From NCBI GenBank assembly GCA_965224465.1, contig OZ245049.1, positions 2,640,001 to 2,672,000 on the forward strand: a stretch of DNA of 32,000 bases, in the 5' to 3' direction. The first letter of the stretch is position 1. Every line of letters begins with the position of its first letter. Below are positions 1 to 19,239 of the stretch, in pieces. The position numbers were made by a program, and so were the translations under genes. Source of the DNA: Flavobacteriaceae bacterium (GTDB taxonomy: Bacteria > Bacteroidota > Bacteroidia > Flavobacteriales > Flavobacteriaceae). The notes beneath the pieces are model-generated. The model was not told the DNA's origin, searched no databases, and worked only from the letters and a program-made list of their open reading frames with translations.

Positions 1-2
1 TT

Positions 3-1028
3 CCAAATCAAGAAAATGTAATTCTTAAATTAGTGATTACAGAAATTCAAGGTAGTGTAGAAGATACTGATATTATAAAATTACCACCAAAAAGTGGAAT
101 AATATTTGAACCTAACCAACTAAAAGTGTCAGAAGCCAATGGTAAAAAAATAACTATAATTTGTGAATCGCCTTTAAGTAAAGATATTACCATTTCATTA
201 TTAGATAAATATGATAAGAAGGTTGGCATGGTTAATATTGTTAAATGTAAAGATGCAATTAGTTTACCTTTAAATTTGGTTTTGGTTTCTGAAAGCAGAC
301 ATATCAATAAGCTAAAAGAGAAGCATCAAAACACAATGCTTACACTAGAGAGTAATCTTCAAAATAACTCATTTAATCAAGCTTTTATAAAGCCTTACTT
401 TACAAATGATCTAAATACTGCTCCAATTATTTCTTTAGATAATTTTAGTGAAAATGATTATAATGGAACTAATTTGTCAAAAAAAGGGAAGGTAAAAATA
501 CTTGAAAAGTTTAAAAATGATGTTGTACAAAAAAAAGGAATTTCATTATTCCTATTAGCAACAAATCATGAAAGAAATCAAGCAGGTGATTCTCAAATAG
601 TTCCTCTTAATTGGAGCAATGTGTTTATCTATATAAATGTTGGGACAGATTCTGATTACGTTCATGAAATAGGTCATGCATTAGGTCTCACGCACAGCTT
701 TAAAGAGGGTAAAGACAAGGTGTATTATAGAAATCAGATAGGAGAAGGAAAATTAAATGAATTTAAAACTAAATTAGAGAGTCAAATAAAATATTTGGAT
801 AAAAATTTAAGCACAGAAAATAGAAAGAAAGTTAATAAGAATATTGAGGTTTTAAATAAGAATATTAAAAAATATCAAGAAAGGTTTTCAATAGGAGACA
901 AAAACCCGTATAAATTTAACAAAAGTGGTACTACAAATTTTATGGATTATTTTAACGATGCTAAAGATTTTTACAGATGGCAATGGAACGTAATGTATCA
1001 AGAAGTAAAAAAATACTATTCTATATAA
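3..1028 (+). CDS. C-terminal part of a larger toxin-like protein (5' end lies outside the window) ending in an M43/metzincin-like zinc metallopeptidase domain
   Basis: The frame is open from nt 3 with no stop before the GTG at 33 used by the ORF track, so the gene starts upstream of the window. HEIGHALGLTH at nt 663-695 is an HExxHxxGxxH zinc site. The downstream TNFMDY resembles the NxMDY region of cytophagalysin/pappalysin-type (M43) peptidases. Confidence 0.7.
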   Translation, partial: PNQENVILKLVITEIQGSVEDTDIIKLPPKSGIIFEPNQLKVSEANGKKITIICESPLSKDITISLLDKYDKKVGMVNIVKCKDAISLPLNLVLVSESRHINKLKEKHQNTMLTLESNLQNNSFNQAFIKPYFTNDLNTAPIISLDNFSENDYNGTNLSKKGKVKILEKFKNDVVQKKGISLFLLATNHERNQAGDSQIVPLNWSNVFIYINVGTDSDYVHEIGHALGLTHSFKEGKDKVYYRNQIGEGKLNEFKTKLESQIKYLDKNLSTENRKKVNKNIEVLNKNIKKYQERFSIGDKNPYKFNKSGTTNFMDYFNDAKDFYRWQWNVMYQEVKKYYSI

Positions 1029-1031
1029 ATT

Positions 1032-1466
1032 ATGAAAAATATACTATATATCGCTTTATTATTGGTCTCCTGTTCAAAAAAAATAACTATTCAAACAATT
1101 AAACCAATACCTTTAATAGAAGAACACTTAGATAGCAGTAAAAAACTATATTTATCAGGAGAAATATATCCAATTCCAGAACCAAAACAATACTATACTT
1201 CTGTTCTGTTGTTACATTACAACGATTCTACTAAAATATTCGCAAGTTCTGATTTTGATGGTAGGTTTGCATTTTATGATTTTAAACCTGAATTAATCAA
1301 TAAAGAATCTTACATATATGCAGTAAATAAAGGATGCATAGCTAAGAGAATTTTATTTGATAGTTTAAAAAATCCAATACGTATTTATTTAGTACAAGAT
1401 TCAATAAAGGGGCTTTCTTATGATGCGTATATTGATCTTCTTATTAAAAATCGACCTATTGATTAA
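1032..1466 (+). CDS. Small lipoprotein, candidate immunity protein for the upstream metallopeptidase
   Basis: Starts 3 nt after the upstream stop. N-terminus MKNILYIALLLVSCSK has a lipobox (LVSC). SDFDGRFAFYDF resembles the carboxypeptidase-regulatory-like (CarboxypepD_reg) beta-sandwich signature. Confidence 0.6.
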   Translation: MKNILYIALLLVSCSKKITIQTIKPIPLIEEHLDSSKKLYLSGEIYPIPEPKQYYTSVLLLHYNDSTKIFASSDFDGRFAFYDFKPELINKESYIYAVNKGCIAKRILFDSLKNPIRIYLVQDSIKGLSYDAYIDLLIKNRPID

Positions 1467-1477
1467 TAGGAATTAAT

Positions 1478-2616
1478 TTACTCACCTTACGCAATAATAA
1501 TTTAGATTTAAGGAAATAATTGTCTATATTGTTAATAACTTTGAGAAGAAAAAAGATGGATAATTTTGTTGATTTATATACCGATTATTTGATAAGTTCA
1601 AGTTCTTATACTACAGCAACAGGAATGTCCCACTTGCTTTGCATAAAACATGATAAAATAACAAGAGCATTGTCAACAGGTGTTTACGACAGTAAATTTC
1701 TATGGAAAACGGCAAAACCTTATATTGAAGAATTGACACAATCAAAAGAAACCGTTATTTTAAGTTTTGATGATTCTATACAAGAAAAACAATATACAAA
1801 AGAAAGTGAACTTAACACTTGGCATTTTGACCACGTGTTTGGGAGGTCTGTAAAAGGAGTTAATTTTCTAACAGCTTTAATAGAAGTAGCCGGTATGCGT
1901 TTGCCTTGTAGTGTGGAGTTTATAAAGAAAGACCTTTGGGTAACCGATAAAAAAACAGGAAAACAAAAGCGTAAAAGCAGCAAAACCAAGAATGAATTAT
2001 TTAGAGATATGTTGCGAGAATGTAGTAGCAAAATACTCTTTGATTATGTTTTGGCTGATAGCTGGTTTTCATCTGTAGAAAATATGATTTACTGTAAAAC
2101 AGCATTAAAAAATAATTTTATTATTGCTTTAAAAAGCAATCGAAGAGTAGCCTTATCATTAGAAGATAAGCAAAAAGGAATATACGTGAATATTAAAACA
2201 TTACAGCCAGAACAGCAGACCGTGGAAGTTTGGTTTGAAAAACTAGACTTTCCGCTGTTGCTTACAAAGCAAATTTTCAAAAACGAGAATGGTACAGTCG
2301 GCGAGTTGTATTTGGCTTGTAGTGATTTAAGTTTAGCGTATGACCAGATAACTACAATCTACAAAAAACTGGGCAGTAGAAGAATATCACAAATCGATTA
2401 AAAGCAATACAGGATTTGCTAAATCTCCAACAAAAAAAACAGAAACTCAAATGAATCATTTTGTCTTACCCATTGTAGCATATAAAATCACTTTGCCATG
2501 AAAACACAAATTTATTTAGCCGCTCAAAAAGCAGCCTATAATGAACTCAAAAACTTATCAACACCCAAGGCAGCATAATCTCTTTTTTAGAGAAAATTAT
2601 GCGTAACATGAGTTAA
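1478..2616 (+). mobile_element. Decayed IS element (IS701/IS4-like DDE transposase) with imperfect terminal inverted repeats
   Basis: Left end ttACTCAccTTACGCAaTAAT (about 1478-1498). The reverse complement of the right end (about 2596-2616) reads ttaACTCAtgTTACGCAtAAT. The element encloses the broken transposase reading frames. Confidence 0.6.
1556..2578 (+). pseudogene. Frameshifted DDE transposase (IS701-like)
   Basis: The N-terminus MDNFVDLYTDYLISSSSYTTATGMSHLL...HDKITRALS is typical of this transposase family. DDE candidates are SFDDS, LADSWF and WAVEEYHKSIK. The last of these is only readable after a frame change near nt 2365. A second frame change near nt 2490 is needed to read HFAMKTQIYLAAQKAAYNELKNL. 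The ORF-track frame stops at 2401. Confidence 0.65.
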
Positions 2617-2821
2617 TCAGAATAAAAACACAATAACACATAGGCGTATAACATTATTTTATATATTTGATCAACGCTTAAAAACAGATACGCCCTAACA
2701 ACAAGCCTTCCCTACATAGTGAACTAGATGGATATGCCATCAAGTTTAGAATTGTTATTGTGAGAATATTACAAAGCATTGACATACTCAAACAACTTAA
2801 TACAACATATAACAAAACAAC

Positions 2822-3511
2822 ATGGTAAAAGCAATATTAATAATAGATGGAAAAGAAGTAAACGTACGTTGGTTTACTATCAATTTTAATCAAGGAGCAA
2901 ATCCTAACGGAAGACCTTCACAAATCCCGGTATTTATAGGTTTTAAACTAATTATAGAAACCAGAAAAGACCTAAACCTTACTGAGTGGGCCTTTTCCTC
3001 TAGACAAACAAAACAGATAGTATTACATATTAGTTCCGTTATTGTGGGAGGCAAAACAAGAAAAATATTTTTCTATGACTGTCATCTTGTAAACTGGAAA
3101 ACAAATTTTTCTTCTACAGGATCAGATCCAATGACGGAAACTTTAGAAATCACCTGTGCGGGTGTTGAAGATTCTAACTCGTTTGGTGTGTATTCTGCTT
3201 CGTGGAGAAAAACTTATAAAGAAGAAAATATTGAACCTACAATTTTAGATAATAACAATGAAAAAGAGTTTACAAGATGTTATATTACAGACTTAGAAGA
3301 AAATGAATTAAATGAATATAAAACTGGAGATAAAATTCTATTGAACATTGAAAGTGAAAATCGTATAGGAGATAATATGACTATTTTTTTAGATGATAAA
3401 ACTCATGATTTCAAAAAAAACGGTCAAACTTTAGAAAATGACACCTTAAAACATACAGTTAGTAGTAATTTTGAACAAATAGAGTTAGAAGTAATAGACC
3501 AAATAAATTAA
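2822..3511 (+). CDS. tssD: Type VI secretion tube protein TssD/Hcp (Bacteroidota T6SSiii type) with a C-terminal extension of about 95 aa
   Basis: Residues 1 to about 130 follow the Bacteroidota TssD pattern: A.L.IDGKE..V, NGRPS, L.EW, YDCHLV, and GSDPMTETLEITCAGVE, which corresponds to the PxSETxxIxA end of the TssD fold. Known TssD proteins end about there. This ORF continues for roughly 95 more residues (nt about 3212-3508). Confidence 0.75.
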   Translation: MVKAILIIDGKEVNVRWFTINFNQGANPNGRPSQIPVFIGFKLIIETRKDLNLTEWAFSSRQTKQIVLHISSVIVGGKTRKIFFYDCHLVNWKTNFSSTGSDPMTETLEITCAGVEDSNSFGVYSASWRKTYKEENIEPTILDNNNEKEFTRCYITDLEENELNEYKTGDKILLNIESENRIGDNMTIFLDDKTHDFKKNGQTLENDTLKHTVSSNFEQIELEVIDQIN

Positions 3512-3518
3512 CACAAAA

Positions 3519-4349
3519 ATGGGAAAGAATACATTTAGAGTAGAATTTGATGATGGAGCTACTAAATCCGTGAGCATTAATATAGTAGACCCTATTACAA
3601 ACTTAGCTCTATACGGAAGTGGGTTTTTAGAACCTAATTCCTCAGGTGGAGGTCATGATACTGGTGACGGATTTAAAAGAATAGCAGAAGCAAGACATAA
3701 AATAAACGAAAAAAAAACTCCAAAAGACATTAATAAAATTCTGTTTTGCCCTACAGATTATGATTTTTTCAAGATTATCAATAATACTAAAAATATAGGA
3801 AGATTAGATATTTATTGTCATGGTTGGCTTGACGGCATAAATCTTGGTGGCTTTAAAGGTAAAAGAAAATTAGGAGGTATTGAAGTAGATGGTGACAAAA
3901 TAGATTGGATGGATAAAAATGAAAATAAAGGTAAAGATTTGAGAAGAGTAGAAACACGTGAAAATTTATACTTAAATAGTACAGAAAAAACAGAATTAAC
4001 TAAACTAAAATCATCTCCTTTTTCTGCTAATACCGAGGTGTACTTTTGGGGTTGTAATATTGGAGGTCAGTTGAGTCCTAAAGGAATCCATATAGCCAAC
4101 AATAACCCTCTAATCAAAGACCCAAAAATTTCTTTTGCTCAAAAATTTGCTAAAAAAATGGGGAAAGGAAATGTTTATGCTCTAGTTGGAAAAGGAAGTG
4201 CAGCTGGTTCTATGTTTAAAAGGAATTCTAAAGAAAAGAATATTTATAGTGATGGGGAGATGATTCCTGCCAATATTTCATATAATCATGGAAATAAAAA
4301 CACCATAATACTTGATGCAACAAAATATCTTAAAAAATTTCCTTTATAA
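3519..4349 (+). CDS. Hcp-linked effector candidate with a His/Cys dyad (DUF4347-like / clan-CD-peptidase-like pattern)
   Basis: Starts 7 nt after the tssD stop and has no signal peptide. LDIYCHGWLDGINLGG has its His codon at 3819-3821. EVYFWGCNIGG has its Cys codon at 4053-4055. In both motifs a hydrophobic strand precedes the catalytic-type residue. This is followed by SFAQKFAKKMGKGNVYALVG. Confidence 0.55.
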   Translation: MGKNTFRVEFDDGATKSVSINIVDPITNLALYGSGFLEPNSSGGGHDTGDGFKRIAEARHKINEKKTPKDINKILFCPTDYDFFKIINNTKNIGRLDIYCHGWLDGINLGGFKGKRKLGGIEVDGDKIDWMDKNENKGKDLRRVETRENLYLNSTEKTELTKLKSSPFSANTEVYFWGCNIGGQLSPKGIHIANNNPLIKDPKISFAQKFAKKMGKGNVYALVGKGSAAGSMFKRNSKEKNIYSDGEMIPANISYNHGNKNTIILDATKYLKKFPL

Positions 4350-4359
4350 AAAATAAGTC

Positions 4360-4851
4360 ATGAAAAAATCATTTATATTTTTTTTTACTATTACTCTAAT
4401 ATGTAATACATCTTGCTTTAAAAAACCAAAATTAACAAGTTCTCCTCAATATAGTATTATTGATAGCTTGAAATATGTATCTACAATTCCAGACGATTAC
4501 TTTCATCCTAGAGGAGATAGTATCTGTTCTAAAATTTTAGCTAATTATAAAAAATTAACTCCTGTATTAATCGAAAAAATTACTGATACCACTAAATCTA
4601 AATATAAATACGCAGATTTTTTTTATTATAAAGTTGGAGACATCTCATTAGAGTTACTTTCTTTAGGTAATCAAGACTATCAATTTCCAATAAGAGAACT
4701 TATTAGTAATGAATTTGAAATAAAAAATAAAAATGATCAACTTAATTTAATACTATACGAACTCTTTCACAAAAATTCCTCTGAAATAAACAATAAGAAT
4801 AGAAAAAAAATAAAAATAGTAATACAAAAATGGTTTAACAATAATAAATAA
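4360..4851 (+). CDS. Lipoprotein, candidate cognate immunity protein
   Basis: Starts 10 nt after the effector stop. MKKSFIFFFTITLICNTSC is a signal peptide with lipobox-type cysteines. Confidence 0.55.
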   Translation: MKKSFIFFFTITLICNTSCFKKPKLTSSPQYSIIDSLKYVSTIPDDYFHPRGDSICSKILANYKKLTPVLIEKITDTTKSKYKYADFFYYKVGDISLELLSLGNQDYQFPIRELISNEFEIKNKNDQLNLILYELFHKNSSEINNKNRKKIKIVIQKWFNNNK

Positions 4852-4857
4852 CGTTGC

Positions 4858-5047
4858 CTAACAACTAAGTGTTCGTGCGGTGCGTAGCACCCAGCATGAA
4901 CATAGTGTTGACTATACCGGCTCAAAAGATGATACTATGGGGATTGCGCGAAGTTTATTAAGAGGCTATCGACAAAGACCTTAATAGGTACCACCTATTT
5001 TTAGGTCATTTTCTCTCACGCTCTTTTGTGGGGATAGTTTTTTACTG
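4858..5047 (+). repeat. Inter-cassette repeat, copy 1 (full length, about 190 bp)
   Basis: Aligns by eye with 15265-15450 over the full length and with 19149-19239 over the 5' half. Begins 6 nt after an immunity-gene stop. Contains conserved inverted repeats (ACATAGTG ... ATACTATGG) and an inner 4-bp hairpin. Confidence 0.8.
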
Positions 5048-6304
5048 TTTATTGAAACAGAAGGTATAGATGATGGAACTGAACTTGAAATAGAAATTAG
5101 TGCTAAAAATGAGGAAGGAACAACTGTTGAAATAAAAAATGATGACGACCAACCTATAAAAATCACAGCAAAAGCAACCTGTAACAACGTTACTTTTGAG
5201 CCTTTCTATGTAAATCCAAAATGGTTTGACAAAAAAGCTCCTATCACTTACTTTTTTAATCTTAAAATTAAAGATGAAAACACTTATATCTGTGAGAATT
5301 TACCAAATGATATTGAAAACCAATTAAAACCTATAGGATTTGGAAAACCAGACGAGTTTAAAATTGACAAAGCAAAAGGATATCTATTAGTAAAAAATAA
5401 AAATGGAACAAAAACGGCTTATACGAGTGGAGAACGATTAGATATTTTAAAGTACCAAAAATGGTTTGAAGATGATTCTGAAGAAATAGACATTAAAAAT
5501 AAAAAGCAATATAAGAGCTATTTTAAAAGTGTTTATTTGACCCGTTTGTTTGGTTGGTCAATAAATAATGAATTTGATAATGAGGCTAACAGACAACAAA
5601 TAATTGCAGAGTTTGAAAAAGCAGGAAAAAAATATAATATTCCACCTTCTATTCTATGGACATACGCAGCAGGGGAAGGACTTCTTGAAAATTGTAGTTG
5701 GAGACCTAAACGTGTAGATTTAAAAGCGGAGGTGAACTCATTCAAAGCCTTTGGTTTAGATTTTTTTGAAAATCATGTGAAAACAATGAGAACAAAAGGC
5801 TATTTAGATGCTTCTTTTAAACAGAACAAGACAAATGTTATTTATAGCGGTTCTTACAAAATGCCCCCCTCTTTTACAGAAGACTATGCTGCTATTAGAA
5901 ATAAGTATGGAACTAAACTCATAAGAAAAGAATCGGCCGACCCCGCAGCTACTGGAACACGTGTATGCCCTGTGTTTTTTAAAGATTTACTAACAGGAAT
6001 AAAAGGCGCATCTGCTATATATGCAAATGCTTATGATTATGCTTCAACAAGTGCTCAAAATCTCGGTTGGGGAAAACTAACTTTAAATCAACAGGTATTT
6101 TTTGGATATGTAAAAATACAAAAGACTAGTGAAAAAGGAAATGCAGAGATCAATAGGTATAGAAATAAACCAGACGCTAATTTTTTAGATGAAAATTATA
6201 CTAGGGATGCCACTAGAACAGATTTATTGCTCATTAAAAATAAATGTTATGTAAGATGGGTTGTTTGGCGCTATGTATTATTAGGAAAACACTTTAGTAA
6301 ATAA
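4988..6304 (+). CDS. 5'-truncated (orphan) effector A: partial delivery domain plus a toxin domain of unknown family. There is no ATG/GTG/TTG before nt 5537.
   Basis: The frame is open from 4988 (after TAG at 4985-4987) to 6304. I translated 5042-5536 codon by codon and found no stop and no ATG, GTG or TTG. Residues encoded by 5042 to about 5530 are homologous to the N-terminal region of the 15943 effector (FYVNPKWF vs FYLDPKWY; ITYFFNLKIKDE vs ITFIFEAKFEDR; LKPIGF vs LRPITY). The first 50 or so codons of that domain are missing and the inter-cassette repeat sits in their place. Confidence 0.7.
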   Translation, partial: VPPIFRSFSLTLFCGDSFLLFIETEGIDDGTELEIEISAKNEEGTTVEIKNDDDQPIKITAKATCNNVTFEPFYVNPKWFDKKAPITYFFNLKIKDENTYICENLPNDIENQLKPIGFGKPDEFKIDKAKGYLLVKNKNGTKTAYTSGERLDILKYQKWFEDDSEEIDIKNKKQYKSYFKSVYLTRLFGWSINNEFDNEANRQQIIAEFEKAGKKYNIPPSILWTYAAGEGLLENCSWRPKRVDLKAEVNSFKAFGLDFFENHVKTMRTKGYLDASFKQNKTNVIYSGSYKMPPSFTEDYAAIRNKYGTKLIRKESADPAATGTRVCPVFFKDLLTGIKGASAIYANAYDYASTSAQNLGWGKLTLNQQVFFGYVKIQKTSEKGNAEINRYRNKPDANFLDENYTRDATRTDLLLIKNKCYVRWVVWRYVLLGKHFSK

Positions 6305-6311
6305 AAAAAAT

Positions 6312-6944
6312 ATGAAAAAAATAATTATAGTTATCTATTTATTAACGGGGAGCATTCTAGTCAATGCCCAAAGAAATTACACAACAAGATCAAAAGACAA
6401 AACAGTAAGCGCTACAACTTTCATTAACCATGGTGAAGGTCTGGATAGTGTAATTGTAACAAACAAAAAACATAAAATGAGGTTCTTGCCCAGCACACCT
6501 TTATTTAATTTTTATGATAAAAATAATGAACCTGAACCTGAACCAATAGGGAATTATTTTACTGCTTATAGCATACAAAAAATAAAAAAAAACATATATC
6601 TACTAGTAGGTCTTGGTGGATATCGAAATTTTGAGATTGAACTCCATTTAATTATTATTAAGAAAAATAAAATATTAAAATATTATATAGTTAAATCAGG
6701 CGATAAAACGCTGAGAGATCCAAGATTTAAATACCTGTCTAAAACAAAAGAAATACTAATTTCAATTCCGAAACTAGATACACCAGAAAATTCTGTTCAT
6801 GAAATAAACTTAAAAGAAAATAAATTCAAGATTATAAAGTCACTTACAGCAAAGGAACTTACCGTAAAGCCACTAACGGAAAAGACACTTACTAAAAAGG
6901 TGTCAGATTCTTTGTTCTATCATTATAAATTGAAAATAAAATAA
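6312..6944 (+). CDS. Exported protein, candidate immunity A1
   Basis: Starts 7 nt after the effector A stop. Signal peptide MKKIIIVIYLLTGSILVNAQ. Paralog of 7341-7973 and distant homolog of 8890-9498. Confidence 0.6.
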   Translation: MKKIIIVIYLLTGSILVNAQRNYTTRSKDKTVSATTFINHGEGLDSVIVTNKKHKMRFLPSTPLFNFYDKNNEPEPEPIGNYFTAYSIQKIKKNIYLLVGLGGYRNFEIELHLIIIKKNKILKYYIVKSGDKTLRDPRFKYLSKTKEILISIPKLDTPENSVHEINLKENKFKIIKSLTAKELTVKPLTEKTLTKKVSDSLFYHYKLKIK

Positions 6945-7329: not shown

Positions 7330-7340
7330 ATTTAAAAAAT

Positions 7341-11966: not shown

Positions 11967-11967
11967 T

Positions 11968-12423: not shown

Positions 12424-12434
12424 AAGGCTTAATT
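11999..12434 (+). repeat. 436-bp near-identical duplication, copy 2 (partner 9578-10013)
   Basis: See copy 1. The offset is 2421 nt throughout. Confidence 0.9.
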
Positions 12435-12922: not shown

Positions 12923-13480
12923 ATGAAAAATAAAATAACAATTATTTTATTTTGTGCTTTTGTATCACATACGAAAGCACAAAATTCAAATATAGAAAAA
13001 TCAATCATTGGTATACAAGCAGGATTTTTAGGTGCTTGGGTTTATAATGAATTCAAACTCATTGATAAATTTGCATTACGAACAGAACTTGGACTAAGCT
13101 CAGGGTTTGGGGATAATGGAAAAATAGAGTTAGTTATTTCTCCAACATTAGCTATAGAACCTAGAATATACTATAACATCAATAAAAGAGCCAAAAAAGA
13201 AAAGATGATTATAAACAATAATGCAAATTTCTTTGCACTTACTACTAGATATAATCCGGATTGGTTTGTAATTTCTAGTAATAAAAACAATAATGTTCCT
13301 AGTCAAATATTAATAGTTCCAAAATGGGGTATGAGAAGGAGTATAAATAAACATTTTAATTATGAATTAGGTGTTGGTTTAGGTATTCGTTCTTATTTTG
13401 GGATGAGAATAGGATTTAATAACAAAGCGAATGAAGCTGCTGCTGAACTTCACATAAGAATTGGATATGATTTCAAATAA
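12923..13480 (+). CDS. Small outer-membrane beta-barrel-like protein
   Basis: Signal peptide MKNKITIILFCAFVSHTKAQ. Alternating hydrophobic beta-strand pattern, with a C-terminal ...HIRIGYDFK aromatic end. Confidence 0.5.
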   Translation: MKNKITIILFCAFVSHTKAQNSNIEKSIIGIQAGFLGAWVYNEFKLIDKFALRTELGLSSGFGDNGKIELVISPTLAIEPRIYYNINKRAKKEKMIINNNANFFALTTRYNPDWFVISSNKNNNVPSQILIVPKWGMRRSINKHFNYELGVGLGIRSYFGMRIGFNNKANEAAAELHIRIGYDFK

Positions 13481-13766
13481 AATAAATTTTAAGACATCTT
13501 TTATTCTCTTTTTAATAATAGTTCTACTAAGCTCATGTGTTTCTTTTTTTGGGTTTGAAAAAAGAAATTATAACTATGAGTACAAAAGTTTTGCTAGAAA
13601 CATAAATTTAAGTGAAGGAAAATGGCTTTTAACGCCAATTTCTTCCACTTCTTTCGGAAGTAATGAAGATGAATCTTATAACCTGTTAAAAGAGTTTTTA
13701 ACTTCTAAATTGGGAGACAGATTAAAAATATCTAACAAATTAAAAGATAAGAATAACAAATCTTAA
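13461..13766 (+). pseudogene. 5' part of a lipoprotein gene interrupted by IS30
   Basis: Lipobox LLSSC. The reading frame ends in a stop created exactly at the IS boundary (TAA 13764-13766, IS inverted repeat from 13767). Confidence 0.65.
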
Positions 13767-14881
13767 ATTCAACTAATAAACGCAACTTTTCGATTTGATT
13801 CTATGATGGTTATATTTTCAAAACAGAAAAGTAGGAAAACCTACCTTTCTTGTCTTGATGGATATGTATCTTACGGTCTCAAATCTCGAAAAAAGAAGTT
13901 GTATGAAACACATCACCCAAGCGCAAAGATACACAATTTGTTGCATGTTAAAACAAGGTTATAAACAGGTTGAGATAGCAGCTGCTATAGGAAAAGACAA
14001 GTCTGTTATTAGCAAAGAGATTAAGCGTAATTCAGACAAAAGAAATGGAGTTTACAAGCATGAATTAGCCCAAAAAAAGTATGCTAAACGTCATAAAGAA
14101 AAGCCTAAAAGAAAACGCTTTACAGAAGATATTCAACAAGCAATAGAGTTGTTATTGCGAGACGATTATAGTCCTGAGCAAGTAGTTGGTGTCCTAAAAA
14201 AACAAGGTAAAGAAACGGTGTCTATTGAGCGTATATATCAGCATATTAGGGAAGACAAGAGGAATGATGGTGATTTACATACACACCTTCGCAGACAGGG
14301 AAGGAGATATAGAAAACGTGGCTCATCAAAGGATTCTAGAGGGGTTATAAAGAATCGTATTAGTATAGAACAACGCCCTGAAGTTGTTGAACAAAGAAAT
14401 CGATTTGGAGATTTAGAGGTCGATTTAATCATAGGTAAAAACCATAATCAAGCCATACTTACCGTAAATGATAGAGCTTCTGGAATGCTTAAAATGAAAA
14501 AAGTAAGCTCTAAAGAAGCAGTTGTTGTCACTAAAGCTATCAATGAAATATTAGAAGACTGGAAGCCTTATCTACATACTATAACAGCTGATAATGGAAA
14601 AGAATTTGCAGGCCATGAGCAGGTTGCAGAAAATTTATGTATTGATTACTTTTTTGCGCATCCATATCACTCTTGGGAAAGAGGATCTAACGAAAATTTA
14701 AATGGTTTGATTAGACAATATTTTGCCAAAGGAAGTGACTTTACAAACCTAACAGATCAAAGAATCAAAGAGGTAGAAACAAAATTAAATAACAGACCTA
14801 GGAAGAGACATAAATATCAAAACCCTATATTTGTAATGGAACAATTATTATTTAACTAAAAGTTGCGTTTGTGACTTGAAT
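13767..14881 (+). mobile_element. IS30-family insertion sequence, apparently intact
   Basis: Terminal inverted repeats: ATTCAActaAtAAACGCAACTTTT at 13767-13790, and the reverse complement of 14858-14881, which reads ATTCAAgtcAcAAACGCAACTTTT. It encloses one complete transposase ORF. Confidence 0.85.
13903..14859 (+). CDS. IS30-family transposase
   Basis: MKHITQAQRYTICCMLKQGYKQVEIAAAIGKDKSVISKEIKRN is the IS30 helix-turn-helix N-terminus. The DDE integrase core is present (DLIIG..., TADNGKEF, SWERGSNEN). The ATG at 13903 is preferred over the 13855 start in the ORF track. Confidence 0.85.
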   Translation: MKHITQAQRYTICCMLKQGYKQVEIAAAIGKDKSVISKEIKRNSDKRNGVYKHELAQKKYAKRHKEKPKRKRFTEDIQQAIELLLRDDYSPEQVVGVLKKQGKETVSIERIYQHIREDKRNDGDLHTHLRRQGRRYRKRGSSKDSRGVIKNRISIEQRPEVVEQRNRFGDLEVDLIIGKNHNQAILTVNDRASGMLKMKKVSSKEAVVVTKAINEILEDWKPYLHTITADNGKEFAGHEQVAENLCIDYFFAHPYHSWERGSNENLNGLIRQYFAKGSDFTNLTDQRIKEVETKLNNRPRKRHKYQNPIFVMEQLLFN

Positions 14882-14882
14882 T

Positions 14883-15251
14883 CAGCAATACTTAATTCCA
14901 TTTAATATCGATTTAGACAATATAAAAGAAAATATTAGCTTTTTGAGAGCATCATCAAAATGTGATTACCTCATTAGTTCAAAAATATATTATCTTGATG
15001 ATACGCGCGATATTGGAGTGGGACAATATCATAAAAATAAAAACTTAAAAAGTAATGGATATAAGTCAGCCTGTAAAATTTCCATTATTGCTTATGATTT
15101 AAAAACAGAAGAGGAAATATTTAATTTAGATTGTTTAGGTTATATATGGATTGATGATGAACTTGACGAAGGCCTTAAAATATATCAAACATCTAAATCA
15201 GCTAGTGCCGATGTTATGGCTAAAATTATAAAAAAATTAAAAGAAAGATAA
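14883..15251 (+). pseudogene. 3' part of the IS30-interrupted lipoprotein gene
   Basis: The frame is open from 14883 (QQYLIPFNIDLDNIKENISFLRASS...), which is 60 nt upstream of the TTG used by the ORF track. It is in the same coordinate frame as 13461-13763, and the intervening 1119 nt is a multiple of 3. Confidence 0.6.
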
Positions 15252-15264
15252 ACACATACTATTG

Positions 15265-15450
15265 CAAATAACTAAGTGTTCCTACGCGTAGTACCTAGCA
15301 TGCACATAGGGCTGACTATACCAGCTAAAAAGATGATACTATGGGGATTGCATGATTTAATTAAGAGGCTATCGACAAAGATCTTTATAGATACTACCTG
15401 TTTTTAGGTCATTTGCTCTATCGCTCTTTTGTGGGTATAGATTTTTACTA
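15265..15450 (+). repeat. Inter-cassette repeat, copy 2 (full length)
   Basis: Aligns with 4858-5047. Begins 13 nt after the stop at 15251. Contains the perfect palindrome CTACGCGTAG. Confidence 0.8.
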
Positions 15451-15590
15451 TATTTCGATACTGATTATTGTTGGTTAGTAGCGTTTATGCATCCGTTTCC
15501 CATTACGTGGCTACGTTTGTTTTTTTATTCGGTATTAGTACCTGACGACAATCTTTTTAAAAAAAAAGAAGACTTAATTGTTATTCTTAG

Positions 15591-15942
15591 CCCTAAAACG
15601 ATTATTGAATAACAACCCTTTTTAAGCGTAAAAACACGTAGCAATAACACTGTTAAAATAATTTATACAGCTAAAAAAAACACAGTTCTCCCAGTAATAT
15701 GCATCAATTAAAACCCTACAAGTACCGCCAATACTACAAAGTACGCACACAACCCTTTGCAGTAACATTTATTAATAAATACTCCCAGTTATATGCTGCT
15801 AATTAAAATTATTAACGACCTTTGAACTATTAATTTAATAGCTTCTGTAGTGCCTGTAGGTATTACGAAAATAACGTCAACTTTAGGGTTGCTATTGTGG
15901 ATATAGATGTGTTACAAAACATTACCAAAAAATCAAAAAAGA
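15591..15942 (+). promoter_or_regulatory. Conserved effector leader, copy 2
   Basis: Aligns with 10025-10424. Ends at the ATG at 15943. Confidence 0.7.
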
Positions 15943-17565
15943 ATGAAAAGAACAGGATTTACGATAACTTTTGAAGATGGAGAATCTCATACAAGATATT
16001 TGACACCTATTGGTATTAGAGATGGGGTTTGGTTAGATAATGAAGGTAATAAATTACAACAATCAAATAGATTGACAACTAACGCTTTTTTTGGAGAAAA
16101 TGTTAAAATTCAAATAGAAACATTTAATATTACTGATGGAAAAAAATTAGATATTAAGATTAAAGCTAAAATTGGAGAAGAATATGTAGAAGAGTTTGAA
16201 GAAATAATTCATAAACTTGAAATAAAGAATAATTTGGCTACTTTAGAAAATTTCTATTTAGACCCTAAATGGTATAATGAGGAAATTGAAAATTACAATT
16301 ATGATACTCATTCTACAGAAATTGATTTTGAGAAAGCTATAACTTTTATTTTTGAAGCAAAATTTGAAGATAGAGATTGGGATAAAGCTAGAAGTTTTCC
16401 TAAAAATGAAAATGATTACCTAAGACCAATAACTTACCGAAGAAATTACGAAGAACTCATAGGACTTTTTAAAACTGATAATAGTGGAGAAAAAGATGTA
16501 AAAAGTAACTATGAAAATAAATTCATTAATAATAATGTTGAAATCAAAAGTTTTGTTGACGAATTTATAGAAAAAACCATTGAAGAAAACATAACTATTA
16601 CTGATATAAAAGTATTAATTGAAGAAAAAGCAACTGCACTTTGGGATACATCTGTAAAACAAGTACAAAATGGTAATCTTGACGACAGACCATTATACTG
16701 GGCTCGAAATAAAATGCAAACTTGGCTCAAACGGAACCCACTTTTTAAAGACCAAATTAATTTTGAAAAATCTATCGTAAAAAAAGGGACTGAGCTTGAA
16801 AAAATAATAACCCTTTTTGAAGAAAAAAGCAGGAATTATACAGGAATTGACTTCTCTAAAGCTGAAAACAGGAAAAAAGTATTGATTACTGGATTTGACC
16901 CGTTTCAACTAAATCCTGATACCAATTTTAATACTAGTATGGGGGTAGATTCTGCAAATACATTTAATCCTTCTGGAATTGTTGCTTTGCATTTAAATGG
17001 AAAATTGATAGGTAATGACATTTACATTCAAACTTGTATTTTTCCAGTACGATATGAAGATTTTGATAAAAAATATGTAGAAAAACTAATTAAAGAGCAT
17101 ATTTCAGATGTAGATGTTATAATCACAACTAGCTTGAACGGGGGGAATAATTGGTTTGATATTGAAGCTGACGCAATAGAATATAGAGGTGGTTTTCACG
17201 ATAATATGTGTATTGGAGGACAAAACTATAGTAAATTTAAATACAACTCAAGTAGATTTATAGCTAATACGAGTAACAAACATAATCTCACAACACTTCC
17301 TAAAACAAAGATATTTAGTGATAATTCATCTATAAATATCAATGGGTTAATTGTTAAATATGATACTACAAGATTAAATTCTAAAACTGAAGGTGGTGGT
17401 GGAAATTACCTCTCTAATGAAATAATGTATAGAGCTACTTCAATAAGAGCGAATAAATCAAAAATACCTGTTGGACACTTTCATCTAGCAAATTTAAGAA
17501 CAATAAAAAGAAGCAATGAGATTTTGAATGTAACAGAAATCGTAATAAAGAAAATAGTAGAATGA
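15943..17565 (+). CDS. Effector D, 540 aa: delivery domain shared with effector A, plus a C-terminal pyroglutamyl-peptidase I (C15)-like domain with a Glu/Ser/His triad
   Basis: The ATG at 15943 (MKRTGFTITFEDG) is preferred because the ATG at 15907 lies inside the conserved leader, where the other copy has ACG. The C-terminal 230 or so residues align with Pcp. KKVLITGFDPF matches KKVLxTGFxPF. DIEADAIE matches the catalytic-Glu motif PERVAIN (Glu codon 17164-17166). GGGNYLSNEIMY matches AGxFVCNxxxY (Ser TCT at 17413-17415 where Pcp has Cys). PVGHFHLA matches GGFIHIP (His codon 17482-17484). Confidence 0.7.
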   Translation: MKRTGFTITFEDGESHTRYLTPIGIRDGVWLDNEGNKLQQSNRLTTNAFFGENVKIQIETFNITDGKKLDIKIKAKIGEEYVEEFEEIIHKLEIKNNLATLENFYLDPKWYNEEIENYNYDTHSTEIDFEKAITFIFEAKFEDRDWDKARSFPKNENDYLRPITYRRNYEELIGLFKTDNSGEKDVKSNYENKFINNNVEIKSFVDEFIEKTIEENITITDIKVLIEEKATALWDTSVKQVQNGNLDDRPLYWARNKMQTWLKRNPLFKDQINFEKSIVKKGTELEKIITLFEEKSRNYTGIDFSKAENRKKVLITGFDPFQLNPDTNFNTSMGVDSANTFNPSGIVALHLNGKLIGNDIYIQTCIFPVRYEDFDKKYVEKLIKEHISDVDVIITTSLNGGNNWFDIEADAIEYRGGFHDNMCIGGQNYSKFKYNSSRFIANTSNKHNLTTLPKTKIFSDNSSININGLIVKYDTTRLNSKTEGGGGNYLSNEIMYRATSIRANKSKIPVGHFHLANLRTIKRSNEILNVTEIVIKKIVE

Positions 17566-18020
17566 TTATGAAACTAATAATAACATTAATATTTATTTCA
17601 ATTTTTCAGTTTTCTTACGCACAATCTTGTGGTAGTGGGGAGTTAATATTTGATTTTTATACAATGGACAATGAAAAGTTAGAATATGAAATTTCGGAAA
17701 TAGAAGTAATTGATAGTATCCTATTAGACAAAACCTATCAAGGAATCAAAATAGATTCTACAAACCTAGAGGGAATAAAGCAATATAAATTTAATAAAAA
17801 AAAATTACCTAAATTTATTTCTGAGTCAATGAAATGTAATAATTCAATAATTAATAATCAATTAAGTTTTAAAACACTTGAATTATTTAATAAAGTTTTT
17901 TTATTAAGAGTTTGGAGCAAAAATAGTGAAATTAAAATTTTAATTGAGTTATTTGGTGGTTGTAATAGAAAGAAAATAATCGTTATGTCAAAAGAACCTA
18001 TCTTGATACATAAAGATTAA
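17562..18020 (+). CDS. Exported protein, candidate immunity D
   Basis: Its start overlaps the effector D stop (ATGATTATG). Signal peptide MKLIITLIFISIFQFSYAQ. Confidence 0.6.
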   Translation: MIMKLIITLIFISIFQFSYAQSCGSGELIFDFYTMDNEKLEYEISEIEVIDSILLDKTYQGIKIDSTNLEGIKQYKFNKKKLPKFISESMKCNNSIINNQLSFKTLELFNKVFLLRVWSKNSEIKILIELFGGCNRKKIIVMSKEPILIHKD

Positions 18021-18041
18021 CACAAATATCGTTTTACAACA

Positions 18042-18698
18042 ATGTATAAAAAATACAAAAAAAAAACAGGAAAAAAAGTAAAACAAAAAATTATTGGATC
18101 ATATACTGGTAATCTTCAATATGCAGATGTTGATACTTATAAAGTATTTGTTACAGATGAAGAAGACGCTAGTTTTAAATTGGAGTTTTCAGTAGCTAGA
18201 GACGCATATGCCGTAATTCCAGGAAATGATAAAGGGAGAACAATAATTTTATCTAATATGTCTTTTGAACCAAAGGATGGGAAAATCAACCATTATTCCG
18301 GAAAATACATGAAAATTTATCCTAAAAAGAATGATACTCCTGCTATAAAATTAACTCAGAAAGGGTCAGAGGTTATGCATACTGAATCTAGACCTGATGC
18401 ATTATCATTAAACTACCGTTCAAAAAAAGATATTGCTTCTGGGGTAATGATTCATGTTGGAGGCAATTATGATAACGAACAACACGGCAAAGCTATTTCA
18501 GCTTCAGAAGGTTATTTTGGAATTGTTAATAATGGTAATTCACAAAAAAACACTTCTGACAAACTAACTAAAGAAGTAATAAATACTGTTTGGAAACGAG
18601 CACAAAACAGTAAGTCAAATCCAAACCATATTAGAATAATTATAGAAAAAAGAGATGAAAAAAGCATTCCAAATAATATCGTTTTTACAAAAAAATAG
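18042..18698 (+). CDS. Small effector candidate E with a YkuD/Tlde1-like (L,D-transpeptidase fold) motif in which the Cys position is Tyr
   Basis: No signal peptide and a Lys-rich N-terminus. In IHVGGNYDNEQHGKAISASEGYFGI the His codon is at 18453-18455. Sixteen residues later comes S-E-G-Y (TAT 18513-18515). This reproduces the H-x(14-17)-[ST]-x-G-C-hydrophobic spacing, except for the nucleophile. Confidence 0.4.
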   Translation: MYKKYKKKTGKKVKQKIIGSYTGNLQYADVDTYKVFVTDEEDASFKLEFSVARDAYAVIPGNDKGRTIILSNMSFEPKDGKINHYSGKYMKIYPKKNDTPAIKLTQKGSEVMHTESRPDALSLNYRSKKDIASGVMIHVGGNYDNEQHGKAISASEGYFGIVNNGNSQKNTSDKLTKEVINTVWKRAQNSKSNPNHIRIIIEKRDEKSIPNNIVFTKK

Positions 18699-19116
18699 AA
18701 TTATTTTTATTTTATTAATTATTTCATCATGTAGTAAACAAGTTAAGTTTAATAAAGTAACTACAGGTGTTTTAGTTCCTAAAGGACAAAATATTGTTTA
18801 TAATAATGAATCAATTATAGAAGTAAACAATAATACAATATTTATAAGAAAAATTGAAAAATACAATCAAGATTTAAATTTATTAGAAGTTGATATTTCA
18901 AAGGCAGAAAGTATGTTAACTTATTCAAGAAAAGAATTAGAAAACGATAGTGCTTTAATTGATTACTATCAAATATCCAAAGACAGAAAAAAAACATCTA
19001 TTAAAAATGATTTTATATTTGATAATAATGTAAAATATAAAATCATTTATAAAGTAAAAGATACTGTTTTATGTATTAAAGATAAGAGTATACTCCTTTT
19101 AACAAGATCACATTAA
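18655..19116 (+). CDS. Lipoprotein, candidate immunity E
   Basis: Overlaps the end of effector E by 44 nt. MKKAFQIISFLQKNRIIFILLIISSCSK contains a lipobox (ISSC). Confidence 0.55.
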   Translation: MKKAFQIISFLQKNRIIFILLIISSCSKQVKFNKVTTGVLVPKGQNIVYNNESIIEVNNNTIFIRKIEKYNQDLNLLEVDISKAESMLTYSRKELENDSALIDYYQISKDRKKTSIKNDFIFDNNVKYKIIYKVKDTVLCIKDKSILLLTRSH

Positions 19117-19148
19117 ATTCGATATAAACCAAAACGATAAATATAGCC

Positions 19149-19239
19149 CAAATAACTAAGATTCCTACGATACGTAGTACCCCGCATGCACATAGTGCTG
19201 ACTATACCAGAACAAAAGATGATACTATGGGGCTTGCAT
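19149..19239 (+). repeat. Inter-cassette repeat, copy 3 (5' half only), at the island boundary
   Basis: Aligns with the first 90 or so nt of copies 1 and 2. Begins 32 nt after the stop at 19116. Contains the hairpin CTACG-ATA-CGTAG. Confidence 0.75.

Follow-up and report, generated by a model that had tools for sequence, protein, structure and literature searches.

A probable T6SSiii toxin and immunity island in a marine Flavobacteriaceae genome, with a variable Hcp tail domain that may pair with effector tags

The AT-rich stretch of about 19 kb at positions 1-19240 of the DNA analyzed here (the window; 32,000 nucleotides of a marine Flavobacteriaceae genome) is probably an island of accessory effector and immunity genes serving a type VI secretion system of the Bacteroidota type (T6SSiii); effectors would be loaded through a variable C-terminal domain of Hcp (ext) and a short tag with which they begin. 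In one module, which is intact, an extended Hcp is followed by a tagged caspase-like protease and then by an exported immunity candidate (Table 1). The first-pass annotation had read the locus as an Hcp-anchored toxin/immunity island, and this reading proved largely right, five of the six toxin types being tied to T6SS genes or effectors elsewhere. Conservation for delivery lies in the Hcp N-domain together with the ext-and-tag pair and does not extend to toxin N-terminal regions as a whole.

Layout of the island

All the relevant genes lie on the + strand. As had been claimed, the locus is more AT-rich than the genes to its right, with a GC content of 0.292 (29.2%) in 1-19239 versus 0.358 (35.8%) in the housekeeping flank 19526-32000; the genes to the right of 19240 encode a POT/MFS transporter and a two-component system and include holB, pgk, and nrfA. 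At the other end, the first ORF is open to the left edge of the window, where the island is cut. The six toxin types announced by the first-pass annotation could all be located (3-1028; 3519-4349; 5063-6304 with 8254-8886; 10425-11966; 15907-17565; 18042-18698), and so could its one-strand arrangement of a toxin without a signal peptide directly followed by a small exported protein, the successive gaps being 3, 10, 7, 3, 1, -4, and -44 nt (range, -44 to +10 nt). In all the downstream proteins a K/R-rich N-terminus precedes a stretch of high hydrophobicity (hydropathy of the best 10 residues, 2.55 to 3.14), and three of the toxin neighbors (LVSC, LSAC, ISSC) plus the orphan copy at 9517-10002 (LSAC) carry a lipobox by pattern. 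The same hydropathy scan found no export-type hydrophobic N-terminal segment in any toxin candidate. The pairs are interspersed with two IS elements, with toxins that are truncated, and with immunity genes present in duplicate.

Flanking DNA is indeed shared between modules, in the form of an upstream block of about 340 nt and a cassette-end block of about 200 nt whose copies are 82 to 85% identical. The copy at 4866-5061 (BLASTN identity of 85% and 82% to the other two) has an RNA fold z-score of -3.8 and a terminator-like site at 5014-5033; the upstream block at 10050-10430 contains no ORF and no RNA structure in excess. The accompanying claim that N-terminal regions are shared among the toxins in general did not stand, as BLASTP between different island toxins found no common N-terminal regions; a short N-terminal tag is common only to 3519 and 15907, the latter read from Met13.

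Table 1. Features of the island, all on the + strand
Positions	Feature	Basis or remark
3-1028	Metzincin-like toxin, C-terminal part (HEIGHALGLTH)	Gene cut by window start
1032-1466	Lipoprotein immunity candidate for metzincin-like toxin	3 nt after toxin; LVSC lipobox; no Pfam match
1520-2401	IS701-family transposase gene, probably incomplete	DDE_5, E 7e-13
2822-3511	Extended T6SSiii TssD/Hcp	PF17642, E 1e-24 over residues 2-116
3519-4349	Cargo effector: tag (residues 1-26) and caspase/CHAT-like cysteine protease-fold domain (His101, Cys179)	Tag HMM, Foldseek
4360-4851	Exported immunity candidate for 3519	10 nt after toxin; hydrophobic N-terminus
4866-5061	Cassette-end block, copy 1 of 3, with terminator-like hairpin	Repeat families D6, D8
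5063-6304	5'-truncated "GEG" toxin (putative cell-wall glycosidase)	Open frame, no start codon before 5537
6312-6944	Signal-peptide immunity candidate for GEG toxin	7 nt after toxin; 47% identical to L009:3204-3779
7098-7973	Tandem duplicate: toxin 3'-end copy (7098-7330) and second immunity gene (7341-7973)	Repeat families D2, D4, D7
8127-8886	Third toxin-end fragment fused to diverged 5'-truncated GEG toxin (8254-8886)	Repeat family D5, translation
8890-9498	Signal-peptide immunity candidate for 8254 toxin	3 nt after toxin; weakly similar to 6312
9517-10002	Orphan copy of DUF3289-type immunity lipoprotein	LSAC lipobox
10050-10430	Upstream block (~340 nt), copy 1 of 2	91-94% identical to 15594-15930
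10425-11966	DUF3289 (colicin M-like) toxin	PF11692, E 3e-18, 66.8 bits
11968-12423	Lipoprotein immunity candidate for DUF3289 toxin	1 nt after toxin; LSAC lipobox
12923-13766	Two small exported proteins (12923-13480, 13461-13766)	Signal-peptide-like N-terminus and LSSC lipobox, respectively
13766-14882	Complete IS30-family element	NCBIfam transpos_IS30, E 1e-86; 25-nt terminal inverted repeats
15270-15465	Cassette-end block, copy 2 of 3	Repeat search, BLASTN
15594-15930	Upstream block, copy 2 of 2	Repeat search, BLASTN
15943-17565	Tagged effector, pyroglutamyl-peptidase (C15)-like C-terminal domain	Likely start Met13 of ORF 15907-17565
17562-18020	Signal-peptide immunity candidate for 15943	4-nt overlap with toxin gene; hydrophobic N-terminus
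18042-18698	Probably degenerate toxin, H..SxGC-motif family	Motif Cys is Tyr
18655-19116	Lipoprotein immunity candidate for 18042	44-nt overlap with toxin gene; ISSC lipobox
19155-19240	Cassette-end block, shortened copy 3 of 3, right border of island	82% identical over 91 nt

Toxin modules, intact and degenerate

Relatives of the toxins at 3-1028, 3519, and 18042 directly follow extended Hcp genes in other genomes. For 3-1028, whose matches to Pfam M10, M43, and M66 were all below threshold, these are the C-terminal parts of Hcp-adjacent effectors in loci L012 and L014 (E 1e-7), and the effector of L004 has the similar motif HEIGHGLGLPH. The transposase gene behind this module scored 221 bits with NCBIfam transpos_IS701_2, under the 250-bit cut-off. 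The start of the caspase-like effector 3519 was matched by a tag HMM built without it (E 7e-14), and no change at His101, Cys179, or Asp97 occurs among 38 sequences. Its AF2 model (pLDDT 92.8) matched in Foldseek the SAVED-CHAT protein 8tl0, Tce1 of the Hcp3-Tce1 complex (9qpe_G), and caspases, with high probability and low TM scores (0.33 to 0.54).

The GEG family turned out to be rare (17 representatives), with the domain C-terminal in all of them; the full-length relatives P0249 and P0253 bear an Hcp tag, and other relatives have Rhs-like or eCIS_core N-termini. Judged by its motifs, the GEG domain probably acts as a glycosidase on peptidoglycan. The 8254-8886 toxin shares 36% identity with the 5537 toxin, and the tandem duplicate preceding it has a period of 1029 nt and 88 to 93% identity, the proteins of 6312 and 7341 being 80% identical. 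The DUF3289 toxin 10425 matched the DUF3289 proteins 9jg8 (E 3e-53) and 9jdi (E 2e-50) of the PDB; its N-terminal ~130 residues have no assigned function, and the tag HMM found no match in it. Experiments have validated DUF3289 as a domain of T6SS effectors (PMC11148199, PMC12135965). The opinion that the domains mostly fall outside classical T6SS effector families had to be narrowed: it does not hold for DUF3289 or for Hcp-loaded cysteine proteases, both described classes. The immunity candidate 11968-12423 is 92% identical in protein to the orphan copy 9517-10002 (DNA, 99% over 300 nt); its assignment to DUF943 was ruled out, as Pfam gave no match, and nothing significant was found by Pfam for 12923-13480 or 13461-13766.

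The effector 15943 was matched by the tag HMM at its first nucleotide (E 6e-5) and by PF01470 at 24.1 bits (cut-off, 22.7 bits). A homologue (47% identical) lies directly after a VgrG-like gene of a Tenacibaculum finnmarkense T6SSiii cluster. In a weak collinear alignment with the pyroglutamyl peptidase PGP-I (1AUG), a Ser falls at Cys144, where the catalytic Cys is expected, and this Ser is a candidate nucleophile. The toxin 18042 shares 28% identity with the Hcp-adjacent effector L027:984-1781 and reads SEGY where the latter reads SYGC; neither the tag HMM nor Pfam matched it.

It could be argued that the island serves chiefly as a store for defense and as a graveyard, made up of orphan immunity genes and decaying toxin fragments, from which few or no toxins are still fired; its orphan immunity genes would then resemble the acquired interbacterial defense clusters of gut Bacteroidales. 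Both GEG toxins lack their 5' ends and tags, 18042 lacks a tag as well as the motif Cys of its relative, immunity genes are duplicated (6312/7341, 9517/11968), two IS elements lie within the island, and the homologue of 6312 in L009 is an orphan behind another module. We nevertheless consider such a store unlikely, since Hcp, 3519, and 4360 form an intact module that is conserved in Aquimarina (effector, 85% identical; immunity protein L001:11528-12019, 66%), 3519 retains all the family-invariant residues, and 10425 and 15943 are full length with intact domains.

The extended Hcp and its probable secretion system

A tssD/hcp gene does head one of the pairs, as the first-pass annotation had it. 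Its product comprises an Hcp barrel (residues 1-125), a flexible linker, and the all-beta ext domain (residues 149-226), a variable domain of about 90 residues that bears an invariant DDKTHDFK motif and had no match in a Pfam search. The AF2 model (pLDDT 84.6; below 50 at linker residues 137-145) matched 8gra_B, Hcp1 of F. johnsoniae (6bdc, TM 0.84), and Hcp5 of B. fragilis; the top-ranking structures were Hcps of T6SSiii. The window contains no T6SS core genes. T6SS genes elsewhere in the genome, whose absence would have refuted the earlier reading, do seem to be present. The host genome appears to encode the T6SSiii sheath protein TssC (P0137; PF17541, 83% identical to a T. finnmarkense plasmid TssC), putatively on the same contig as the island: P0137 is recorded on a 5,241,564-bp contig, as are the Hcp of the window (P0001), the caspase-like toxin (P0205), and six or more additional extended Hcp paralogs.

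Could an extracellular contractile injection system (CIS) be what the extended Hcp and its cargo belong to, or could the toxins exit by T9SS, Sec, or lysis? CIS tube proteins have the same fold as Hcp, an eCIS_core domain occurs in one distant relative of the GEG toxin, and extended Hcp modules occur outside T6SS clusters, amid housekeeping genes (chromosomal loci L001-L005, L030, and L031). We regard these routes as highly improbable, however, given the T6SSiii-specific TssD match, the TM scores of 0.81 to 0.84 to T6SS Hcps versus 0.45 to 0.52 to eCIS tubes, the toxins without signal peptides, and the TssC recorded on the source contig. A 42-kb Bernardetia plasmid, moreover, has both an extended TssD-effector module and a T6SSiii cluster, and an ext-bearing tssD lies inside the T. 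finnmarkense cluster.

Co-variation of ext with the effector tag

In 27 of the loci L001-L029, the extended Hcp is followed by an effector of 136 to 694 residues at a distance of -20 to +31 nt. The first ~25 effector residues fit M[GA]KNTF.[IV].F.DG.T.S.S..I..P in most of these loci, while the remainder differs; in the AF2 model of 3519 this tag is a predicted beta-hairpin. Effectors after non-extended Hcps lack it. Two results speak against the ext-tag scheme: an ext HMM found nothing in the other toxins, and 10425 and 18042 have no tag. Across 26 Bacteroidota loci, ext identity and tag identity were correlated with a Spearman rho of 0.70, a value reached in 0 of 2000 Mantel permutations, versus 0.12 for the Hcp N-domain and the tag and 0.21 for ext and the toxin body. 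Hcp paralogs of the same genome have N-domains 88 to 96% identical and ext domains merely 20 to 44% identical; between Hcps of distant genomes the pattern is the reverse (24 to 27% and 57 to 62%). DNA similarity to the Aquimarina locus L001 begins at about Hcp codon 139 and extends through the effector and immunity gene, and one protein (P0206) combines a toxin body as in 3519 with the other tag type.

A less probable alternative is that ext and tag do not interact: the Hcp lumen would carry the effector, and ext would cap the tube, bind VgrG or the sheath, or adhere to the target. In solved complexes the cargo does lie inside the Hcp ring (PMC13323088, PMC13035841). On the DNA the tag lies within about 10 nt of where ext ends (3' end), so that their co-variation could reflect linkage of two recombination breakpoints and not physical binding. 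Against this stand the size of the effectors after extended Hcps, up to 694 residues compared with 190 to 310 for described Hcp-loaded cargos (PMC13323088), the retention of tags (mean identity, 36%) while toxin bodies were exchanged (mean, 23%), the restriction of tags to effectors of extended Hcps, and an ext far better conserved than the Hcp barrel across phyla-level distances. A precedent for the hairpin tag is the antiparallel beta pair at the N-terminus of a B. fragilis effector, a loading region that co-evolves with Hcp3 (PMC13035841), and minor Hcps co-segregate with their own effectors (PMC13213661).

Under ext-tag loading, the constant Hcp N-domain would build into, or cap, the T6SS tube, and the tethered ext would recognize the hairpin tag of the effector encoded next and load it for firing. 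The tagged effector 15943 has no Hcp beside its gene, and its tag (TFEDGE type) resembles those found after PEYDFEYNG-type ext domains, such as that of P0004, an Hcp paralog encoded elsewhere in the genome, which makes loading in trans probable. The exchangeable unit would be ext plus tag, and also ext plus effector plus immunity gene, with the near-identical N-domains of a genome's Hcp paralogs offering a constant region for recombination. The delivered toxins (the DUF3289 toxin, colicin M-like and with the cell wall as its presumed target; the probable glycosidase GEG; and the others, putative peptidases) would act in the target cell envelope, which would be why every immunity protein is exported, and the orphan immunity genes may add protection against toxins fired by neighboring cells. 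A swappable Hcp tail domain that travels with the effector tag, as sequence comparisons suggest, would match toxins to their carriers in a way that seems not to have been described before.

Layout of the island and its T6SS context

The island (window 1-19240, + strand) was found to be built on a recurring pattern, in which a protein lacking a signal segment is followed by a small exported protein. The gaps between toxin genes and their downstream neighbors were 3, 10, 7, 3, 1, -4, and -44 nt, the neighbors had a strongly hydrophobic segment behind a basic N-terminus, and a lipobox pattern was present in three of the seven as well as in an orphan copy at 9517-10002. No signal-type hydrophobic segment was present among the toxin candidates. 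The first-pass annotation had described such a one-strand grammar of toxin and exported neighbor, and with the spacing and N-terminal segments now quantified, all seven neighbors fit it; it had also judged the island to be more AT-rich than the core genes on its right, which was borne out by the GC content (29.2% in 1-19239 versus 35.8% in 19526-32000). The right flank carries housekeeping genes for a POT/MFS transporter, a two-component system, an exonuclease, holB, pgk, an aldo-keto reductase, a porin, and nrfA. On the left, the island continues beyond the window, since its first ORF runs on past that edge. The features are listed in the table. Within the core flank, the stretch 28134-31488, comprising a porin-like gene (Alginate_exp family), a short ORF (29385-29996), and the cytochrome c552 nitrite reductase gene nrfA, showed no connection to the island.

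Features of the island and of the extended Hcp (nucleotide positions in the window unless residues are stated)
Feature	Position	Strand	Remark
Metzincin-motif toxin	3-1028	+	HEIGHALGLTH (HExxHxxGxxH motif)
Caspase/CHAT-like effector	3519-4349	+	Pfam-less family, 44 proteins
GEG toxins	5063-6304 and 8254-8886	+	both window copies without 5' ends
DUF3289 toxin	10425-11966	+	PF11692, 66.8 bits vs 25-bit cut-off, C-terminal third of model only
C15-like effector	15943-17565	+	PF01470, 24.1 bits vs 22.7 cut-off
H..SxGC-type toxin	18042-18698	+	28% identical to Hcp-adjacent effector of locus L027
Hcp barrel	Hcp residues 1-125		AlphaFold2 model
Low-confidence linker	Hcp residues 137-145		AlphaFold2 model
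Ext, separate all-beta domain	Hcp residues 149-226		AlphaFold2 model
Cassette-end block, ~200 nt	4866-5061, 15270-15465, 19155-19240		closes three cassettes
Upstream block, ~340 nt	10050-10430, 15594-15930		91-94% identical, before two unrelated toxin genes
IS30-family element, complete	13766-14882		25-nt terminal inverted repeats

The gene at 2822-3511 matched the Pfam TssD family PF17642 in residues 2-116 of its 229 (E 1e-24; 87.2 bits, cut-off 25.8 bits), and its AlphaFold2 model, built on 53 sequences (pLDDT 84.6), fell into three parts: the barrel, the linker, and the C-terminal domain called ext here. In Foldseek the model matched 8gra_B (E 4e-8, TM 0.83), Flavobacterium johnsoniae Hcp1 (6bdc, TM 0.84), and Bacteroides fragilis Hcp5, while tube proteins of extracellular injection systems were clearly poorer matches to the barrel than were T6SS Hcps. 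A Pfam search with ext gave no match. The extension is not a toxin domain, being all-beta and ~90 residues long, with a separate effector gene next to the Hcp gene in 27 loci.

The core gene looked for in the source genome was TssC, with queries taken from the T6SSiii clusters on plasmids of Tenacibaculum finnmarkense and of Bernardetia. A TssC of 450 residues (P0137; PF17541, 83% identical) turned out to be recorded on a contig of 5,241,564 bp, a length shared by the contigs recorded for the window Hcp (P0001) and the 3519 protein (P0205); the nearest relatives of this TssC were P0122 (95%) and then P0116, from a Flavobacteriaceae MAG (93%). At least six more extended Hcp paralogs (P0004, P0006, P0010, P0014, P0082, and P0083) were recorded on the contig of this length. 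They were 88-96% identical to the window Hcp in the N-domain and only 20-44% in ext, a pattern that suggests gene conversion or repeated cassette exchange onto a constant 5' half.

The first-pass annotation had expected T6SS genes in this genome and had named their absence as the main argument against an Hcp-anchored toxin/immunity island; with P0137 on a contig of this length that argument falls away. Given this TssC and the Hcp family match, we read the locus, from its sequence, as a T6SSiii auxiliary effector-immunity island mixing intact, orphan, and degenerate modules. The layout of an effector-immunity pair, with the effector beside hcp, vgrG, or PAAR and the immunity gene directly downstream, was found for the caspase/CHAT-like effector 3519 and its immunity candidate 4360, and in other loci for relatives of 3-1028, 15907, and 18042.

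Extended Hcp modules and a short effector tag

Related loci were collected by a genome-collection scan with the window Hcp, which returned three loci only, all distant (L001-L003), by exact look-ups (L004, L005, L030, and L031), by a metagenome scan (L006-L029), and from plasmids (L032 and L033). Most of their hosts were marine Flavobacteriaceae; Cytophagia, Marinilabiliales, and Bacteroidales MAGs were represented too. In 27 loci the gene after the extended Hcp, at -20 to +31 nt (mostly -1 to +11), encodes an effector of 136-694 residues; where the gene after this effector was inspected (L001-L005 and L009), it coded for a small protein. The window carries a single hcp gene outside any core cluster, and so do the chromosomal loci L001-L005, L030, and L031; no paired hcp genes were seen in the window or in these seven loci, and the flanks of the chromosomal loci checked were housekeeping genes with no T6SS core genes. 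Two short Hcps, P0055 and P0065, considered as neighbors of a core cluster, were orphan modules too. On the 42-kb Bernardetia plasmid, the extended Hcp module occurred together with a T6SSiii cluster, and in T. finnmarkense an ext-bearing tssD lies within such a cluster.

Several loci showed further peculiarities. The T. finnmarkense gene (L032:19905-21023, in the T6SSiii cluster of plasmid CP116296) encodes a 372-residue 'tssD' in which a partial Hcp and ext (E 4e-28) are followed in frame by a stretch, MAGKQNKIVASFSSAKGNSLDIIFP, resembling the effector tag described below by eye only, and then by ~170 residues. Its sequence looks like a natural carrier-tag-cargo fusion, and this in-cluster tssD was the only fused Hcp-ext-cargo version seen. 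Directly upstream of the extended tssD on the Bernardetia plasmid, hypothetical proteins of ~175-240 residues are encoded by six genes in tandem (L033:145-4288), which may be an immunity-gene array. Two tandem ext domains were present in the 345-residue Hcps of L021:6001-7023 and P0077. In L009:1960-3782, an Hcp-effector pair is followed first by a 137-residue gene present twice and next by a homolog (47-49% identical) of 6312/7341, the immunity candidates of the GEG toxins; with no GEG toxin nearby, this homolog is an orphan immunity gene.

In most loci, the effectors encoded after extended Hcps were alike in their first ~25 residues only and diverged completely beyond them. The consensus of this tag is M[GA]KNTF.[IV].F.DG.T.S.S..I..P. 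A tag HMM, built without the window protein and without its close Aquimarina homolog, was run against the six-frame translation of the window and gave two significant matches only: one begins precisely where 3519 does (E 7e-14), the other at Met13 of ORF 15907, nt 15943 (E 6e-5). In the AlphaFold2 model of 3519 (pLDDT 92.8), the tag is predicted to fold as a beta-hairpin whose two strands span residues 2-9 and 15-22. The effectors of L030 and L031, which follow two non-extended Hcps, have different starts and no tag. The N-terminal domains of the toxins had also been considered as copies of ext, a possibility rejected since an ext HMM matched the Hcp itself only.

We then compared the parts of the module with one another. 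Across 26 loci, the identity of ext correlated with that of the tag (Spearman 0.70, reached in none of 2000 Mantel permutations), the Hcp N-domain did not correlate with the tag (0.12), and ext correlated weakly with the toxin body (0.21). Genetic linkage alone could produce the ext-tag correlation, as the two adjoin on the DNA. The Hcps P0066, P0069, P0070, and P0072 of Aquimarina and Olleya were 24-27% identical to the window Hcp in the N-domain and 57-62% in ext; the Labilibaculum and Bacteroidales Hcps (L002 and L003) were 34-40% identical overall and kept the invariant ext stretch DDKTHDFK. DNA similarity to Aquimarina (78%) began at window position 3236, that is, at about Hcp codon 139, and ran through the effector gene (protein 85% identical) and the immunity gene (66%); the DNA of the window Hcp N-domain resembled loci other than Aquimarina. 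Members of the 3519 family keep the toxin body and differ in their first ~25 residues; P0206, for one, is 78% identical to 3519 but carries a TFEDGE-type tag.

Toxins, cassette borders, and mobile elements

The DUF3289 toxin 10425 was matched in PDB by 9jg8 (E 3e-53, residues 131-497) and 9jdi (E 2e-50) and scored 66.7 bits with the whole-protein model TIGR03034, below its 156-bit cut-off. DUF3289 is a colicin M-like, periplasm-acting, and validated T6SS effector domain (PMC11148199, PMC12135965). In T6EC1, whose immunity protein is DUF943, and in the orphan effector of Aeromonas jandaei, the domain is likewise accompanied by an exported protein encoded downstream. In contrast to these effectors, the N-terminal 130 residues are unrelated here, the host system is T6SSiii, and the immunity candidate is a 151-residue lipoprotein. 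No Pfam match, to DUF943 or to any other family, was obtained in 11968-12423 or in 9517-10002, and these putative immunity genes represent a family different from DUF943.

The 3519 family has members in Tenacibaculum, Chryseobacterium, Aquimarina, and Capnocytophaga. Its members do not vary at D97, H101, or C179 (His101/Cys179 across 38 sequences), no Pfam family was matched, and a PDB sequence search came out empty. The best Foldseek matches were SAVED-CHAT, Tce1 in the Pseudomonas aeruginosa Hcp3-Tce1 complex, and caspases, with a probability of 0.98-1.0 but an E of only 2e-3 to 9e-3 and a TM of only 0.33-0.54. Tce1 and Tce2 are Hcp-loaded putative cysteine proteases with a proposed action on eukaryotes (PMC13323088). 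Both these Hcp3 cargo proteins and 3519 are Hcp-associated, and a clan-CD-like Cys-His protease fold may be common to them, but they share no sequence similarity and the TM-scores are low; the exported immunity candidate of 3519 argues for a target in the bacterial envelope, unlike that proposed for Tce1/Tce2.

The best Pfam score of the metzincin-motif toxin was 19.5 bits, below the 24-bit cut-off, and it has homologs among Hcp-adjacent effectors. The C15-like effector 15943 is 47% identical to the product of the gene after a VgrG-like gene in the T. finnmarkense T6SSiii cluster; since the N-terminus is different there, the C15-like toxin occurs in two delivery modules. In a weak collinear alignment with the pyroglutamyl peptidase PGP-I 1AUG (E 0.19), the Glu and His positions are preserved, and Ser stands at that of Cys144 in the window protein and the Tenacibaculum homolog alike. 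The GEG family is rare, with 17 representatives among 1.84 billion proteins; its domain, with the invariant motif PSxLxTxAxGEG, is always C-terminal and stands behind Hcp tags (P0249 and P0253), Rhs-like regions, or an eCIS_core domain. From this motif one might guess at a lysozyme-like glycosidase. PDB sequence searches with the GEG toxin and with 18042 were empty. The latter has no tag and reads SEGY where its L027 relative reads SYGC, with Tyr for Cys, and is probably inactive. The H...SxGC pattern presumably resembles the YkuD/Tlde1-like catalytic motif; a YkuD (L,D-transpeptidase) reading was dropped, as neither 18042 nor the L027 relative had a Pfam YkuD match.

The cassette-end block includes a terminator-like hairpin and scored as more strongly folded than shuffled controls (z -3.8); its three copies gave no usable covariation. 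The copy at 19155-19240 is truncated, cut exactly at the border between the island and the core genome. The upstream block contains no ORF, no Rfam match, and no excess RNA structure. In its last part lies a 23-nt motif, TTTAGRRTTGYTATTGTGRRWAT, also found at 2740-2762, 60-82 nt upstream of the Hcp start, and the motif or the block may be a shared promoter or operator. TBLASTN did not support a decayed Hcp 3' end as the origin of the block; a similar 23-nt motif also precedes the intact Hcp gene, which makes a regulatory site the likelier reading. Rfam searches were negative both for the whole window at gathering thresholds and for 15252-15945 at E up to 1, and no tRNA genes were found in the window.

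The island further contains a 1029-nt tandem duplication of a toxin end with its immunity gene, an orphan copy of the DUF3289-type immunity gene, and an IS701 transposase fragment. The 3' end of the small lipoprotein gene 13461-13766 is where the IS30 element has inserted; 13461 and 14943 are not one gene split by it, since a stop codon remains when the flanks are joined.

Proposed loading device and comparison with known systems

In the proposed mechanism, the Hcp barrel would be the constant structural part, the tethered ext would bind the N-terminal hairpin of the effector encoded next door, and ext and tag, together with toxin and immunity gene, would be exchangeable cassettes. We tentatively propose, at somewhat less than even confidence, a Bacteroidota T6SS loading device in which a tethered, interchangeable C-terminal adaptor of Hcp captures a ~25-residue hairpin tag of the effector outside the tube lumen.

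The closest precedent is that of gut Bacteroides, in which minor Hcps co-segregate with their effectors (PMC13213661). The minor Hcps of B. fragilis GA3 (Hcp1-Hcp2 and Hcp2-Hcp3, with the effectors Bte1, Bfe1, and LysM; PMC13035841, PMC13213661) and the island both belong to T6SSiii, and in both the hcp genes adjoin variable, co-segregating effector cassettes. Loading in GA3 goes through an antiparallel beta pair at the effector N-terminus that co-evolves with a hypervariable part of Hcp, and here, too, such a pair, predicted as a hairpin in 3519, co-varies with the variable Hcp part (rho 0.70 over 26 loci). Unlike in GA3, there is here a single Hcp with a ~90-residue C-terminal beta domain on a flexible linker, it is ext and not the barrel that varies with the tag, the tag is ~25 rather than ~70 residues long, and the modules lie dispersed, away from the core T6SS cluster, with no paired hcp genes seen.

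The orphan hcp/vgrG modules and Hcp-ET proteins of Proteobacteria are similar in that an effector-immunity pair follows an hcp located away from the main cluster and Hcp bears a C-terminal extension; here, however, the extension is a small all-beta non-toxin domain without a Pfam match, and the effector gene is separate. With Rhs and CdiA-CT/CdiI arrays the island shares a constant region joined to variable toxin-immunity cassettes, 5'-truncated orphan toxins with intact immunity genes, tandem duplicates of toxin end and immunity gene, low GC, and IS elements. Unlike in those arrays, where the constant region is the N-terminal part of the toxin polypeptide itself, a separate structural domain, the Hcp barrel, has this role here, and there are two exchange points, barrel/ext and tag/toxin. 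The kind of system is known. The modular adaptor domain of the extended Hcp and the matching effector tag seem to be undescribed in the searchable literature, in which we came across neither an extended flavobacterial Hcp nor the tag.

What pairs a T6SS effector with its carrier is an active question, and to our knowledge it was not until 2026 that Hcp-cargo complexes were first solved structurally and a co-evolution model was first put forward for Bacteroides. The window locus and ~30 related loci suggest that Bacteroidota, marine ones and others, have a simpler, modular solution, consisting of a constant tube domain, a swappable adaptor, and a short effector tag. If this is true, effectors far too large for the lumen (up to ~700 residues) could ride on Hcp, adaptor and tag would be a portable plug-and-socket pair moving between species independently of barrel and toxin, and genome-wide searches for T6SSiii effectors could use the tag as their sequence signature. 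We know of almost no T6SSiii effectors in Flavobacteriia, including the Tenacibaculum fish pathogens. If confirmed, the tag could be used for their discovery in this group and as a handle for loading chosen cargo onto the T6SS, and the putative caspase-like protease with its candidate periplasmic immunity protein, the rare GEG domain, and the presumed Ser variant of the C15 fold would be candidate toxin families.
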